Under the pieces are notes generated by a model, which saw only the letters and a program-made list of their open reading frames with translations, ran no database searches and was not told where the DNA came from. Position numbers and translations under genes: made by a program. Shown here in pieces: positions 18,673-33,186 of a DNA stretch of 64,000 nt. Position 1 is the stretch's first letter. Every line of letters begins with the position of its first letter. The stretch lies in NCBI RefSeq assembly GCF_988243305.1, contig NZ_OZ547136.1; one strand, 5' to 3'.

Positions 18673-19056
18673 ATGAAGCTGACCATCATTCGATTAGAAA
18701 ACTTTAGCGACCAGGACCGGATTGACCTGCAAAAGATCTGGCCGGAGTATTCCCCTTCCTCTTTACAGGTTGACGATAACCACCGTATCTACGCCGCGCG
18801 TTTTAACGAGCGCCTCCTAGCGGCCGTGCGGGTAACCTTAAGCGGCACCGAGGGGGCACTGGATTCTCTACGTGTGCGGGAAGTCACCCGCCGTCGCGGT
18901 GTGGGGCAATATCTGCTGGAAGAGGTTTTGCGTACCAATCCTGGCGTTTTAGGCTGGTGGATGGCGGATGCTGGCGTGGAAGATCGCGGTGTGATGACGG
19001 CGTTTATGCAGGCGCTGGGGTTTACGGCACAACAGGGCGGCTGGGAGAAGCGTTAA
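18673..19056 (+). CDS. panM: PanD maturation factor (PanZ/PanM)
   Basis: 127-aa ORF MKLTIIRLENFSDQDRIDLQKIW... matching E. coli PanM/YhhK. Confidence 0.9.
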   Translation: MKLTIIRLENFSDQDRIDLQKIWPEYSPSSLQVDDNHRIYAARFNERLLAAVRVTLSGTEGALDSLRVREVTRRRGVGQYLLEEVLRTNPGVLGWWMADAGVEDRGVMTAFMQALGFTAQQGGWEKR

Positions 19057-19580
19057 TCGCTCTGTGTAAAAAGCAGTTCAATGGATTTGGTTGGGAAAAA
19101 TAACGCATTTTCGTTTTCTCCGACCAGCGGGATAAAGCCCAGCGACTGATAAAACGTATGGGCTTTTTCATTCAGCGCCTCGACAAAAAGACCGTGAATA
19201 CCTACCGCTAAAGAGGCTGACCAGACGACTTTCATGGCATGAGCAACCAGTGTTGCTCCCCATCCCTGTCCCTGTAATGAACGATCAATTGCCAGACGCC
19301 CAAGAGTGACGCTGGGAATATTTTTGTAGGGAATTTTTTTCTGTTTCGATTTCGAGGGCAATGCGGCTCGTTCAAAACAACTGCCGGATAATGTGTAATA
19401 TCCCAGGACCTGACGTTCTGGAGTGTTGCGACAAAGGATATACGCTCGCAGAATTTTATTGCGATGTTGACGAATCAGATGTGCCGTCAGAAAGAGATTT
19501 AACGCTTCCTCGCCGCAGTCGAATCGCTGTAGATCATAATCTGCATCATCGGTCAGAATCTCTATCGTCAGATCATCCAT
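19053..19580 (-). CDS. ataT: GNAT-family acetyltransferase toxin of a type II TA system (AtaT/TacT/ItaT family)
   Basis: 175-aa ORF MDDLTIEILTDDADYDLQRFDCGEEALN...; immediately downstream of a DUF1778-like gene; resembles AtaT of E. coli O157 as recalled. Confidence 0.75.
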   Translation of the reverse strand: MDDLTIEILTDDADYDLQRFDCGEEALNLFLTAHLIRQHRNKILRAYILCRNTPERQVLGYYTLSGSCFERAALPSKSKQKKIPYKNIPSVTLGRLAIDRSLQGQGWGATLVAHAMKVVWSASLAVGIHGLFVEALNEKAHTFYQSLGFIPLVGENENALFFPTKSIELLFTQSD

Positions 19581-19586
19581 AAATGA

Positions 19587-19853
19587 TTACATTCCCTGAA
19601 GACGTTTTGTCGCACGTTTTAGCTTTTCACCTGGCGACGGTGGATTACTCAGCGCATCCATCACCCGCGTCCAGGATTCCTCATTGAGGATCACCCGCCG
19701 ATGCTGTTCAATCACTTCCGCAGCCCGCTGCGAAGCGCTGTTCAACATAAATTGGCTGACGGACTGATTAGATATCGCTGCCGCTTCCTCAATCATACTT
19801 TTGTCATCGTCAGTTAAACGCAGATCGATACGCTGCTTTTTAACAGCAGACAT
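19587..19853 (-). CDS. ataR: DUF1778 antitoxin (AtaR/TacA family)
   Basis: 88-aa ORF MSAVKKQRIDLRLTDDDKSMIEEAAAISNQSVSQF...; upstream of and co-oriented with the GNAT toxin gene. Confidence 0.75.
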   Translation of the reverse strand: MSAVKKQRIDLRLTDDDKSMIEEAAAISNQSVSQFMLNSASQRAAEVIEQHRRVILNEESWTRVMDALSNPPSPGEKLKRATKRLQGM

Positions 19854-20002: not shown

Positions 20003-21106
20003 TTACTTCGCATCTGTCGCCGTGCCGTTGGCGTGCCAGTCAAATACGCCGAACTCAAAGCCTTTCAGATCGCCTTTCTCATCCCACGTCAGCGGCCCCA
20101 TCACCGTATCAACCGAGTTTGCTTTCAGGTATTTGGCGATCTCCGCCGGATCGTCAGACTGATTCAGCCCCGCCTGCAAAGATTGCAGCGCCGCGTAGGT
20201 GGTCCAGACGAATGCGCCGCTTGGATCTTGTTTTTTCGCTTTGATCGCGTCAACAATCGGTTTGTTCGCCGGAACCTGATCGTAGTTCTTCGGCTTGGTC
20301 ACCAGCAGTCCTTCCGCTGACTCGCCCGCGATATTAGACAGCGAGACGTTAGCCACACCTTCCGGCCCCATAAACTGAGTTTTCAGCCCCGCCGCGCGCG
20401 CCTGACGCAGGATCTGCCCCATTTCCGGGTGATAACCGCCGTAGTAAACGAAGTCGATATTCTCTTTCTTCAGGCGTGCCACCAGCGTCGAGAAATCTTT
20501 TTCCCCGGCGGTGATGCCATCAAAGAACACTACGTTAGCATTGCCTTTCTTCAGGCCGTCCTGCACCGCACGCGCCAGACCTTCGCCGTACTGTTGTTTG
20601 TCGTGAACGATAGCAATACGCTGCGGTTTCACTTTCTCAAGAATATATTTCGCCGCCGTTGGTCCCTGGTCGGAGTCCAGGCCAGTGGTGCGCATAATCA
20701 ACTTATAGCCGCGCGCGGTCAGTTCTGGCGCGGTTGCCGCAGGGGTTATCATTAAAATGCCTTCATCTTCATAGATGTCTGACGCTGGCTGCGTTGATGA
20801 AGAACAGAGGTGACCAATCACATATTTAATGCCGTCGTTAACGACTTTGTTCGCCACCGCAACCGCCTGTTTCGGGTCACAGGCATCGTCATATTTCACG
20901 ATTTGCAGTTTGTTGCCTTTGATACCACCTTTAGCATTGATATCCGCAACCGCCTGCTCAGCACCAGTAAACTCCTGGTCACCGTACTGGGCCACCGGAC
21001 CGGACATTGCGCCCACGACCGCGACTTTAATATCTTCTGCCAGAGCCATATTGCTGAATGCCAGCGCGATACATCCTGCCAGTAACGCTTTACCCTTCAT
21101 GTTCAT
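20003..21106 (-). CDS. livJ: Leu/Ile/Val periplasmic binding protein
   Basis: Start placed at [18 protein letters not shown] (367 aa; K-12 has MNIKGK); the ORF-track start is an upstream extension. Confidence 0.9.
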
Positions 21107-21321
21107 CCTGAGGTTCCCCATTCTTCTGGTTATTACGTGTGTTGTGATGTTGTTGTTCAGCACTTTATTTCGTTTTATGCATAACTACCCGTGCTTTAGC
21201 AGCATACTCTGCTAAAACATACCCGATTTTTATGATATTGGAATAGCTATTTTGACAGTTTATTAACAATCTGCGTGGGGATTGGCGTTTTGCCGGAGGG
21301 GGAAACTGATTATTGCAGAGG

Positions 21322-21358
21322 CCCAAAAAACAAAAACCCCGGATTCTCATCCAGGGTT
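21322..21358 (-). terminator. Rho-independent terminator after rpoH
   Basis: AACCCTGG-atgagaat-CCGGGGTT hairpin followed by TTTTTGTTTTTTGGG on the minus strand. Confidence 0.6.
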
Positions 21359-21377
21359 CTCTGCTAAGTAGCGGAAA

Positions 21378-22232
21378 TTACGCTTCAATGGCAGCGCGAA
21401 GTTTTTTCATCGCGTTCTTTTCCAGCTGGCGCACACGCTCAGCGGAAACACCGTAACGGTCAGCCAGTTCCTGCAACGTGGACTTGTTGTCTTCGTCCAG
21501 CCAGCGCGCGCGGATGATATCCTGGCTACGCTCGTCCAGACCTTGCATCGCGTCGGTCAGACGGTTTGCCGCCTGCTCTTCCCAGTTATCATCTTCAATG
21601 CCGTCAGCAAAGTTAGATGATTTATCCTGCAGATAGAGCACCGGAGCCATCGGCTGGCTATCGGAATCGTCGTCGGAAGACAGGTCAAAGGTCATGTCCT
21701 GTGCCGCCATACGCGATTCCATCTCAAGTACGTCTTTGCTGGTTACGCCCAGTTCACGGGCCACCATTTCGACTTCATCCTGGTTAAACCAGCCCAGACG
21801 CTGCTTGGTTTTACGCAGGTTGAAGAACAGTTTGCGCTGCGCTTTGGTGGTCGCAACTTTGACGATACGCCAGTTACGCAGAACGTATTCGTGGATCTCT
21901 GCTTTGATCCAGTGGACGGCGAAGGAGACCAGGCGCACACCCACTTCCGGGTTAAAACGGCGCACTGCTTTCATCAGGCCGATGTTACCTTCCTGAATCA
22001 AATCCGCCTGTGGCAGGCCATAGCCCGCATAATTACGAGCAATATGAACAACAAACCGCAGGTGAGACAGGATCAGCGTTTTAGCTGCTTCCAGATCGCC
22101 ATGGTAATGCAGCTTTTCAGCCAGCGCCCGCTCCTCGTCAGCCGACAACATCGGCCACGCGTTAGCTGCCCGGATGTAAGAATCCAGGTTGCCAACTGGG
22201 GCTAAAGCTAAACTTTGCATTTTGTCAGTCAT
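21378..22232 (-). CDS. rpoH: RNA polymerase sigma-32 (heat-shock sigma factor)
   Basis: 284-aa [30 protein letters not shown]... matching RpoH. Confidence 0.97.
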
Positions 22233-22476
22233 TCAAATCCTCTCAATCGATATCTTCTGGCGCTTCAGTGGTAGCAACAACTGTGCCAGAGCTTAAGAGC
22301 AACGAGGTTATCATTCACTGTTTTATCAGACCGTGATTTTATCCACAAGTTCAATGCAAGCTTGTGAATAAATTACGCACAAAATGTGACATAGAGATGA
22401 AATACCGGGAAGAGACAACGGGGTCTCTTTCCCTGCTACGGAACCCATTGCAGGGAAAGAGTATAACACGCTTTTA

Positions 22477-23535
22477 TTATTCAGGCGTAAAGTGGCGTAA
22501 ATGTTGTACCGTGGCAAGCCACGCTGCCACCCAGCCAATCATCGAGCATACCAGCAGCAACAGCAGGCATTCATCGAACGATAAGCCATTGATATCAAAC
22601 TTCGTTCCGAAAACCTGTGCCACTTCTGCAACCGCCGATGACAAACGCAGTACCAGAATTTCTGACAAAATTAATGACAGCAATGCGCCAGAAAATCCCA
22701 GCAATGCGCCTCCGTACAGGAACGGGCGCAGGATGAAACCATCCGTCGCACCAATCAGTTTTTGTACGTTAATGGAGTCACGGCGAGCAAAGATGCTCAG
22801 ACGCACACTGTTGCCGATGACGAGGAACACTGCTGCCACCATCAACACGCCGATCATCGCGGAAACGCGCCCGACCAGCCCGGTCAACGCCGCCAGACGG
22901 GCAAACCAGCTGTCATCCATCCGCACTTCGTCAATGCCGTTGATCTGGGTGATACGATCACGCAGCGTATTCAGTGATTCCGTCCCCTGAAAATCGAGTT
23001 TCGGGATCACCACCGCCACTGCCGGAAGCGGGTTTTCTTCCAGCATATCCAGCGCGCCGCCAAAACCAGACCAGTTACGGAACTCGCCCAGCGCGTCTTC
23101 ACGAGAAAGATAGTTCACTTTCTCTACGCCCTGCTCGGCCTGTAGCTGTGCCACCACGCCCGCAGCGGCGTCATCGTCCAGCGTTTTTTGCAGATAAACA
23201 GTGATTTGCGGTGACGGATAATACTGCGTCGCCGCCTGGTTAACGTTTTTGTACACCATATAACAGACGCTGGGCAGCGTCAGGGAGATGGCGATAACCA
23301 TCACCGTTAAAAACGTGGCGAACGGTTTGCTTTTCAGATCCTGCAATGCGCCGTGGAAGGCATAGCGCACCTGTTCGTTGAAAACGTTGGTTTTGCGATT
23401 TACCGGTTTTGGCGAGGATTTCGCGCGTTTCGGTGCGTTACGACCGCCGTCGCCTGAGCCGCCGACCGATTTACGGAAGCGATCCAGACGCCCGCCAAAC
23501 TGCCGAATATGATTGATTGCATCGCGCTTATTCAT
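22477..23535 (-). CDS. ftsX: Cell division ABC-type permease-like protein
   Basis: Start placed at [15 protein letters not shown] (352 aa); 8-bp overlap with ftsE. Confidence 0.93.
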
Positions 23536-24196
23536 GGCCCACGCCTCCATGCAAGTGACCATCGCTCAGGGTGAGCATGCGATAGGAACGCCGCGAAATC
23601 AGGTTGATGTCGTGCGTTGCCATCAATACGGTTACCCCAACGCGGTTAAACTCTTCAAACAGACGTAAAATGCCTTCCGACAACGCGTCGTCCAGGTTAC
23701 CAGTCGGTTCGTCCGCCAGCAGTACCGCGGGCTTGTTCACCACCGCGCGGGCAATGCCAACACGCTGTTGTTCACCGCCGGAAAGCTGAATAGGGAAGTT
23801 CTTCGCTTTGTCCAGTAGCCCGACTTTATCCAGCGCCGCCGACACCCGGCGACGAATATCGTCACCGCTGGCACCAGCGATAATCAGCGGGATCGCCACG
23901 TTATCGTAGACAGTACGGTCCATCAGTAGATGGTGATCCTGGAAAATCATGCCAATCTGGCGGCGCAGAAACGGAACTTCACGGTTTTTCAGACGCGTGA
24001 TGTCATGGCCGCTAAACCAGATTTTCCCGGCGCTGGGCCGCTCAATCCCACAGATCAGCTTCAGGAGGGTACTTTTCCCTGCGCCGGAATGACCGGTCAG
24101 AAACGCCATCTCACCCGGCTGCATATGGAACGTAACGCCCTGCAGCGCCTGTCTCCCACCGAGATAAGCCTTGCTGACATGTTCAAAGCGAATCAT
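23528..24196 (-). CDS. ftsE: Cell division ATP-binding protein
   Basis: 222 aa; Walker [10 protein letters not shown] and signature LSGGEQQR. Confidence 0.95.
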
Positions 24197-31968: not shown

Positions 31969-33186
31969 TTAAGATGATGAGGCGGCCTCAGGGACGTGTT
32001 CCGGAGGCCGTTTTTTTAATCGCCACGTCAGTAATAACGCGATTGCGACCAGTCCCGCCGCCGCCAGATAAATCACCGGTACGCCCGCCCAGCTCATCAC
32101 CAGCCCAGCCAGTGGTCCGGTCACGCCAAGCGATAAATCCATAAATACGGTGTAAGTTGCCAGCGCCGCCCCCTGATTTTGCTGCGGAACCGCTTTTACC
32201 GCCACTACACCCAATGCAGGGAACACCAGCGAAAACCCTGCCCCCGCCAGTAAGACGCCGATTTTCGCCATCCACGGCATAGTCGCCACGCCAACCAGTA
32301 GCAGGCCGATTATCTCAACGCTAAAGCAAATCATCGCCACGTTTAAGCCGCCGATACGGTTAATACCATTAGGGAATAACAAACGCGTACCGACAAACGC
32401 ACAGCTAAACAGCGTCAACGCGAAAGCCGCACCGTCCCAACCTTTAGCGTCATAAAACAGCGTGATAAAGGTGGCGATGACGCCAAATCCGGCGGAAGCC
32501 AGTGCCAGCGCCATACCGTACAGCCAGACGCGCCCAAGCACCGCGCGAAACGGCAGCGGTTTGCCTTTACTGGCTTTTACCGTCGGACGCGGGATCGCCA
32601 ACAAAATGGCCACCAGCGCCACGCCCATAATGATTAACGCTAACGCCTGCAAGCCGCCCCAGTGATAAAACACGACACCTAACGGCGCACCCATCGCCAT
32701 CGCCCCGTAAGTGACAATGCCGTTCCACGAAATCACCCGCCCGATATGCAGCGAGCCAACCACGCCAACGCCCCACAGGGTCGATCCCGTTCCGGCAAAA
32801 CTTTGCCCAATCCCAAGGATGACGCGTCCCAGGCAAAGTAATAACAGGCTGATGACGGGCAGACTGGCGGTTAATCCTGCCGTCAGATATCCCAAACCGC
32901 TCAAAAAGCAGCCGCATAAACCGAAGACGACAATCTTTTTGGGGCCCAGCAAATCGGCGTAACGTCCGGCATGAGGGCGGCTCAGCAAGGTGGCGAAATA
33001 TTGCAGGCTGATAACCAATCCTGCCCAGAAAGCGCTAAAGCCCATCACATCATGGACATAGCCCGGTAATACAGCGAGCGGCAACCCGATGGTGAGGTAG
33101 CTGGCGAAGTTAAACATGACAATGGAGACAATGCGCAAATTCAGGCGCAATCCGTTTAGCGCGGGTTCGGCTACGGGTTCGGGCAT
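31969..33186 (-). CDS. yhhS: MFS-family transporter
   Basis: Start placed at MPEPVAEPALNGLRLN (405 aa); 12-TM-type membrane protein. Confidence 0.9.
   Translation of the reverse strand: MPEPVAEPALNGLRLNLRIVSIVMFNFASYLTIGLPLAVLPGYVHDVMGFSAFWAGLVISLQYFATLLSRPHAGRYADLLGPKKIVVFGLCGCFLSGLGYLTAGLTASLPVISLLLLCLGRVILGIGQSFAGTGSTLWGVGVVGSLHIGRVISWNGIVTYGAMAMGAPLGVVFYHWGGLQALALIIMGVALVAILLAIPRPTVKASKGKPLPFRAVLGRVWLYGMALALASAGFGVIATFITLFYDAKGWDGAAFALTLFSCAFVGTRLLFPNGINRIGGLNVAMICFSVEIIGLLLVGVATMPWMAKIGVLLAGAGFSLVFPALGVVAVKAVPQQNQGAALATYTVFMDLSLGVTGPLAGLVMSWAGVPVIYLAAAGLVAIALLLTWRLKKRPPEHVPEAASSS
31983..32017 (+). terminator. Rho-independent terminator after dcrB, embedded in the 3' end of the convergent yhhS coding region
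   Basis: CGGCCTC-agggacgtgttccg-GAGGCCG hairpin followed by T7 on the plus strand. Confidence 0.55.

Follow-up and report, generated by a model that had tools for sequence, protein, structure and literature searches.

The control region of rpoH in enteric bacteria is said to follow a general plan laid out by Ramirez-Santos et al. in 2001 (NAR 29:380), in which a sigma-70-type promoter at a distal site, over 200 nt upstream, is combined with proximal sigma-E and sigma-70 promoters. The distal promoter P1 is reportedly used by sigma-70 or sigma-S, in work attributed to Janaszak in 2009, and the sigma-54 promoter P6 is said to go back to Janaszak in 2007. DnaA reportedly represses rpoH, a finding credited to Wang and Kaguni in 1989, the CRP/CytR assignment is said to stem from Kallipolitis and Valentin-Hansen in 1998, and the concept of the rpoH mRNA as a thermosensor is attributed by report to Morita et al. 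in 1999. Two further sigma-70 promoters, P4 and P5, presumably lie in the neighbourhood of P3 and are taken here from the literature only. The record for rpoH as a whole comprises five promoters and five transcription factors (PMC3661553). Among these promoters, P3 is the founding sigma-E promoter, through which sigma-E itself was discovered (PMC8103513); it is sigma-E-dependent and serves as the standard sigma-E reporter (PMC8103513, PMC3326320, PMC9239242), and in genomic SELEX the rpoH/ftsX spacer shows a strong peak for the RpoE holoenzyme (PMC5493296). In Salmonella Typhi, a cis-antisense RNA of rpoH has also been described under the name ArpH (PMC5963218).

The locus analysed here lies in a window of 64,000 nucleotides (64 kb), by which the whole stretch of DNA under analysis is meant. 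In the open reading frame listing, rpoH (284 aa) occupies 21378..22232 on the minus strand with its ATG at 22232, and the stop codon of ftsX, the gene upstream of rpoH on the same strand, occupies 22479..22477. Positions 22233..22476 are exactly the 244-bp ftsX-rpoH intergenic spacer, read 5' to 3' on the minus strand; the names of the two flanking genes are taken from the RefSeq annotation of matching E. coli genomes. The first-pass annotation had described a 244-bp leader or promoter region ahead of rpoH, and its coordinates are exact by the open reading frames as well as by the RefSeq neighbours. The same annotation called the region AT-rich, which is mildly supported by a GC content of 42.6% against 51.1% in the window and approximately 54% in the two flanking genes, but AT-richness is not a marked feature, the spacer standing at the 15th percentile of GC among 244-bp windows, with a minimum of 35% GC in its central 80 bp.

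Alignment with K-12, which had been proposed as a check, revealed no rearrangement: the spacer is colinear with that of K-12 MG1655 (NC_000913.3 3600784..3601027) and identical to it at 244 of 244 positions with zero gaps. The 444 bp spanning the spacer carry two substitutions against K-12 MG1655, both in the flanking coding sequences. With this 444-bp query, megablast found at least 95% identity in 5425 of the 5426 complete E. coli genomes, and all matches are single-copy, chromosomal and annotated with ftsX on one side and rpoH on the other. Compared with the K-12 rpoH regulatory region (P1, P3, P4, P5, and P6, with DnaA, CRP/CytR, and CpxR sites), the locus, the length and the bases are the same; every element that can be searched by consensus lies at the corresponding position, and the spacer is without any difference. 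Since the spacer sequence is identical to that of K-12, everything established for K-12 applies directly. The interval is almost certainly the canonical E. coli rpoH regulatory region, with the promoters of several holoenzymes and the sites of several regulators packed into 244 bp. As such, it is an already known, textbook control region with the K-12 sequence.

The comparison was extended to other species by a search for the P3/DnaA core (19 specified bases), with one genome per species, which returned at least 120 loci over Enterobacteriaceae and Erwinia. The alignment comprises 109 usable loci, one per enterobacterial species. Its conservation islands fall on motif positions, with mean identities of 0.85-1.0, as against 0.39-0.53 in the stretches between motifs (109 species). 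P3 and DnaA box 1 owe part of their apparent conservation to the way in which the loci were selected, their bases having served as the search pattern. The layout of distal and proximal promoters in the plan reported for other enteric rpoH regions by Ramirez-Santos in 2001 is reproduced in the 109-species alignment, and three features go beyond that general plan as cited here, namely, a hairpin overlapping P1, a CpxR-type box in ftsX, and the footprints of sigma-54.

The sigma-E promoter P3 occupies 22326..22352 on the minus strand and is composed of a -35 element, GAACTT (22352..22347), a 16-bp spacer, and a -10 element, TCTGA (22330..22326). Its predicted start, placed from the hexamers, is at approximately 22320-22319, near -87. 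The pattern GAACTT-N15-17-TCTGA has one match on both strands of the 64 kb, where 0.03 would be expected. The first-pass annotation had expected a sigma-E-dependent promoter here; the motif scan confirms a consensus P3, and the dependence on sigma-E comes from published work (PMC8103513, PMC5493296). Two of the four DnaA boxes (TTATNCACA) in the window sit in the spacer. Box 1, a perfect TTATCCACA at 22339..22347 on the plus strand, is located inside the P3 spacer, and box 2, TTATTCACA at 22371..22363 on the minus strand, forms the end of a conserved block; together, the two boxes constitute the inverted repeat I3. The conserved block (TGTCACATTTTGTGCGTAATTTATTCACA, 22363..22391, minus strand) has a mean identity of 0.91 compared with 0.50-0.53 in the flanking spacers (109 species), and it presumably holds the distal CRP/CytR zone. 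A CRP-like box, TGTGGATAAAATCACG, with 8 of 10 half-site bases, lies at 22332..22347 on the minus strand, sharing positions with DnaA box 1 and with the P3 spacer. It is presumably the box of the catabolite-sensitive promoter P5; as a pattern, the CRP consensus with two mismatches occurs 15 times in the window against 22.8 expected and so is not above chance.

The sigma-54 promoter P6 (TGGCAC-N5-TTGC, 22274..22288, minus strand) is the single match to its pattern in 64 kb, where 0.21 would be expected, and its predicted start, placed from the positions of the elements, is at approximately 22262. Its -24 and -12 elements are 70-100% conserved around a variable spacer, the -24 TGGCA at 0.7-1.0 per position and the -12 TTGC with a mean identity of 0.89 (109 species). 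The homologous S. Typhimurium site, TGGCACGGTTGTTGCTCG, is found among sigma-54 binding sites and scored promoter sequences (PMC3844500).

The -24 element is also included in a 5'-UTR stem, UCUGGC/GCCAGA (22290..22285 / 22261..22256, minus strand), which is part of the MFE fold. The fold of the UTR from 22320 to 22233 does not exceed shuffles in stability (z = 0.08), and RNAalifold gave no consensus structure for the proximal 5' UTR across species. A strong RNA 3' end is reported by Term-seq at K-12 position 3600804 on the minus strand, with a score of 262424 (PMC7815308). This position corresponds to 22253 in the window, which is -21 from the ATG and 3 nt past the UCUGGC/GCCAGA stem, and it is marked 'Yes' in a column of the supplement that we read as the Rho-termination call (PMC7815308). 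The Shine-Dalgarno sequence GAGAGGA follows at 22238..22244 on the minus strand, with a mean identity of 0.96 (109 species), and in the predicted fold it is paired at 30-37 C.

At the other end of the spacer, P1 is recognised by pattern match as an extended -10 element, TGTTATACT (TGnTATAcT), at 22460..22468 on the minus strand. Of the 9 positions of TG-n-TATA-m-T, 7 are conserved to at least 95% (109 species), and there is no -35 hexamer at a distance of 17 bp. Its predicted start, placed from the position of the hexamer, lies at approximately 22453, some 221 nt before the ATG. TATACT is the hexamer favoured by sigma-S, and its occurrence in P1 is consistent with the reported use of this promoter by sigma-70 or sigma-S. 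A ChIP peak of sigma-S RNA polymerase has been mapped at the rpoH promoter (U00096.2 3598950-3599099; PMC4447067); with our own 1977-bp offset between genome versions, it corresponds to about 22376-22525 in the window and covers P1.

Outside the flagged interval, in the last ftsX codons, lies a CpxR-type box, a direct repeat with the exact consensus GTAAA-N5-GTAAA (22487..22501, plus strand), whose centre is approximately 41 bp upstream of the predicted P1 start. The exact pattern occurs twice in the 64 kb against 0.14 expected; the second occurrence, at 32566..32580 on the minus strand, is inside the coding sequence of a yhhS-like transporter, as judged by K-12 colinearity, and is probably due to chance. 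Both pentamers of the box in ftsX (TTTAC on the ftsX strand) are at least 95% conserved, and the synonymous third positions of its Gln, His, Leu, and Phe codons are 98-100% conserved compared with 17-50% in their neighbours (109 species); the conserved Leu codon is the rare TTA. Such synonymous conservation argues for a DNA-level constraint inside ftsX, and the motif itself suggests that 22487..22501 is a candidate CpxR box near P1. It occupies a position from which an activator could replace the absent -35 element of P1. CpxR involvement in rpoH control is attributed to Zahrl et al. (2006) in a later source (PMC3661553), and neither rpoH nor ftsX appears among the entries of a CpxR regulon supplement.

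The elements of P1, P3, and P6 are thus located, and with five promoters documented for rpoH (PMC3661553), the statement of the first-pass annotation that the region carries multiple promoters stands. Generic tools recover little of this organisation. A sigma-70 scan returned one weak site, which overlaps the start codon and is not above shuffles, and it missed P1, P3, P4, P5, and P6 altogether, as is expected for extended -10 and activator-dependent promoters. In a permissive Rfam scan of 20900..23700, only chance-level matches were obtained (E above 2), none of them in the spacer, and no rpoH/ftsX start site or 3' end is found among the matches listed for the supplements of further genome-wide mapping studies. 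The single weak sigma-70 site, equal to shuffles, together with a CRP-like match that is not above chance and an unremarkable AT-richness, could suggest a plain AT-rich gap that holds just one promoter and in which the motif matches arose by chance. This reading is effectively refuted, and we give it practically no credence, because the sigma-E, sigma-54, DnaA, and CpxR patterns are unique or enriched in the window, the motifs coincide with conservation islands in 109 species, and the bases are identical to those of an experimentally dissected region.

In the canonical reading of the region, the distal extended -10 promoter P1, of the sigma-70/sigma-S type, would give rise to a leader of approximately 220 nt. 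P3, with its consensus sigma-E elements, would initiate approximately 87 nt before the ATG, with a perfect DnaA box and a CRP-like box set among its elements, and P6, with its sigma-54 -24/-12 elements, would do so approximately 30 nt before the ATG. Because the promoters and regulator sites are packed together, rpoH transcription would integrate several signals, and translation of rpoH would in turn be controlled by long-range base pairing within the mRNA that involves the initiation region.

The thermosensor segment of rpoH extends from -19 to +247 (21986..22251, minus strand) and is located mostly within the coding sequence. In the predicted fold of 22251..21986, the SD/AUG region pairs with a distal coding segment, and the predicted probability that the AUG is unpaired rises from 0.02 at 30 C to 0.07 at 37 C, 0.24 at 42 C, and 0.69 at 50 C. 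The predicted sequestration of SD and AUG by long-range pairing is the same as in the thermosensor reportedly described by Morita in 1999, and its loosening falls in silico between 42 and 50 C. Rfam holds no curated family for the rpoH leader or thermosensor. The claim that the rpoH mRNA itself acts as a thermosensor agrees with a predicted thermolabile pairing of the SD/AUG region, but its location does not, as the element is almost wholly outside the flagged interval. The control region reaches past this interval on both sides, with the CpxR-type box in ftsX and the thermosensor mostly in the rpoH coding sequence.

The one loose end of this otherwise characterised region is the role of the RNA hairpin that overlaps P1, a feature absent from the first-pass annotation. 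The hairpin (CTCTTTCCCTGC / 13-nt loop / GCAGGGAAAGAG; 22425..22461, minus strand) is the inverted repeat I1 of 12+4 bp. It starts inside the P1 -10 hexamer, 16 nt past the ftsX stop codon, and the final bases of that hexamer, as well as the predicted P1 start, fall within its 5' arm. It is the sole long stem in the -30 kcal/mol fold of a 116-nt segment (z = -2.7), and folded alone, the E. coli sequence reaches -25 kcal/mol. A stable hairpin is present in all 83 distinct enterobacterial species versions, with a median of -22 kcal/mol, and its onset is 5-11 nt past the T of TGnTATAmT, that is, within or just after the -10 hexamer.

The stem is also supported by strong covariation. In an alignment of 44 sequences, the 9-bp consensus stem is 95.5% paired with compensatory changes in 7 of its 9 pairs; compensatory cells number 57 compared with 16.5 in shuffles, and values as extreme as those observed do not occur in 500 shuffles. 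Trimming of the sequences followed the hairpin ends predicted for each of them, a choice that slightly favours pairing; the signal is nevertheless argued to be real, since controls in which the 3' partner was slid by 1-3 columns are only 46-63% paired. The loop is unconserved, with a mean identity of 0.41 (109 species). Approximately 20 cells are of the G-U type in the sense RNA, as against approximately six that would form G-U pairs on the opposite strand alone; G-U-type cells thus outnumber the A-C type, which favours pairing in the sense transcript.

With Rho-independent terminators, the hairpin shares a stable, GC-rich, covarying stem-loop just past a stop codon, and the ftsYEX operon could be taken to end here at a canonical terminator of this kind; a minority of species show a T3-T4 run soon after the stem. 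We regard this as rather unlikely. The defining U-tract is absent after the stem in E. coli and in most species: the 10 nt past the stem contain 3 T at the median, which equals the background (frequency of T, 0.34), and 68 of the 83 versions have no T run longer than 2. A terminator scan of 22100..22700 returned zero sites, and the Term-seq table contains no 3' end at the hairpin (PMC7815308). The hairpin further differs from such terminators by having a promoter start, as predicted, within its 5' arm.

A second possibility is that the P1 mRNA itself is the beneficiary: as a stem-loop at its 5' end, the hairpin would shield the long leader from 5'-end-dependent decay. RNA beginning at the predicted P1 start loses a median of 7 of 15 pairs and drops from approximately -22 to approximately -9 kcal/mol; it keeps a 5'-terminal hairpin of approximately -8.4 kcal/mol in E. 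coli (-8.8 as the median), and its 5' end is still paired. We consider a protective role of this kind doubtful, since the covariation extends to 22459..22456, which lie upstream of the predicted +1 and would be absent from P1 RNA; this argument is not decisive, because the +1 on which it depends is a predicted one.

The overlap with the P1 -10 element and start, together with a core, CCCTGC...GCAGGG, that is nearly invariant, would also fit an inverted repeat that acts as DNA, either as a cruciform or as a protein-binding palindrome modulating P1. To this we assign a very small probability because the loop varies in length as well as in sequence, the outer stem changes by compensatory substitution so that the sequence itself is not kept, and the G-U bias favours pairing in the sense transcript.

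The reading that we prefer is that the full stem probably acts on the read-through RNA of ftsYEX, as a 3'-end, stabilising, or insulating structure. Transcripts from P1 would begin within the 5' arm of the hairpin and thereby escape the element, since the full stem would be missing from them. In its most specific form, that of a promoter inside a 3'-end element, this proposal would have the full 12-16-bp stem arise in the ftsYEX read-through RNA, which would be processed, stabilised, or insulated there, with the P1 mRNA free of the element; we put this version forward tentatively and rate its probability as low. If it is true, the hairpin and the 3' end at -21, with its putative Rho call, would constitute an RNA-level layer upstream of the thermosensor.

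A second stem, GGGAAAGAGAC/GTCTCTTCCC (22407..22432, minus strand), was considered as a conserved element and rejected, as its mean identity is 0.53 and it is absent in many species. Beyond the group of Escherichia, Citrobacter, and Enterobacter, its conservation is poor. Some bases of this stem also belong to the 3' arm of the main hairpin, with which it could compete, and it could form in P1-initiated RNA.

Elsewhere in the window, a GNAT toxin and DUF1778-type antitoxin pair adjoins livJ (19053-19853, minus strand). In matching RefSeq genomes, the pair is named ataT/ataR and lies beside panM, and 1612 of 5426 complete E. coli genomes match a 991-bp query over at least 80% of its length. In K-12, such a toxin-antitoxin pair is not known to be annotated beside livJ.

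As the rpoH region is unchanged from K-12, it says nothing new about the strain, and its value is that of a positive control, a textbook regulatory region having been correctly recognised from sequence. The region itself sets the amount of heat-shock sigma factor made per cell, and through it the cytoplasmic heat-shock response is linked to envelope stress (sigma-E and Cpx), carbon status (CRP/CytR), replication (DnaA), and signalling of the nitrogen type (sigma-54).
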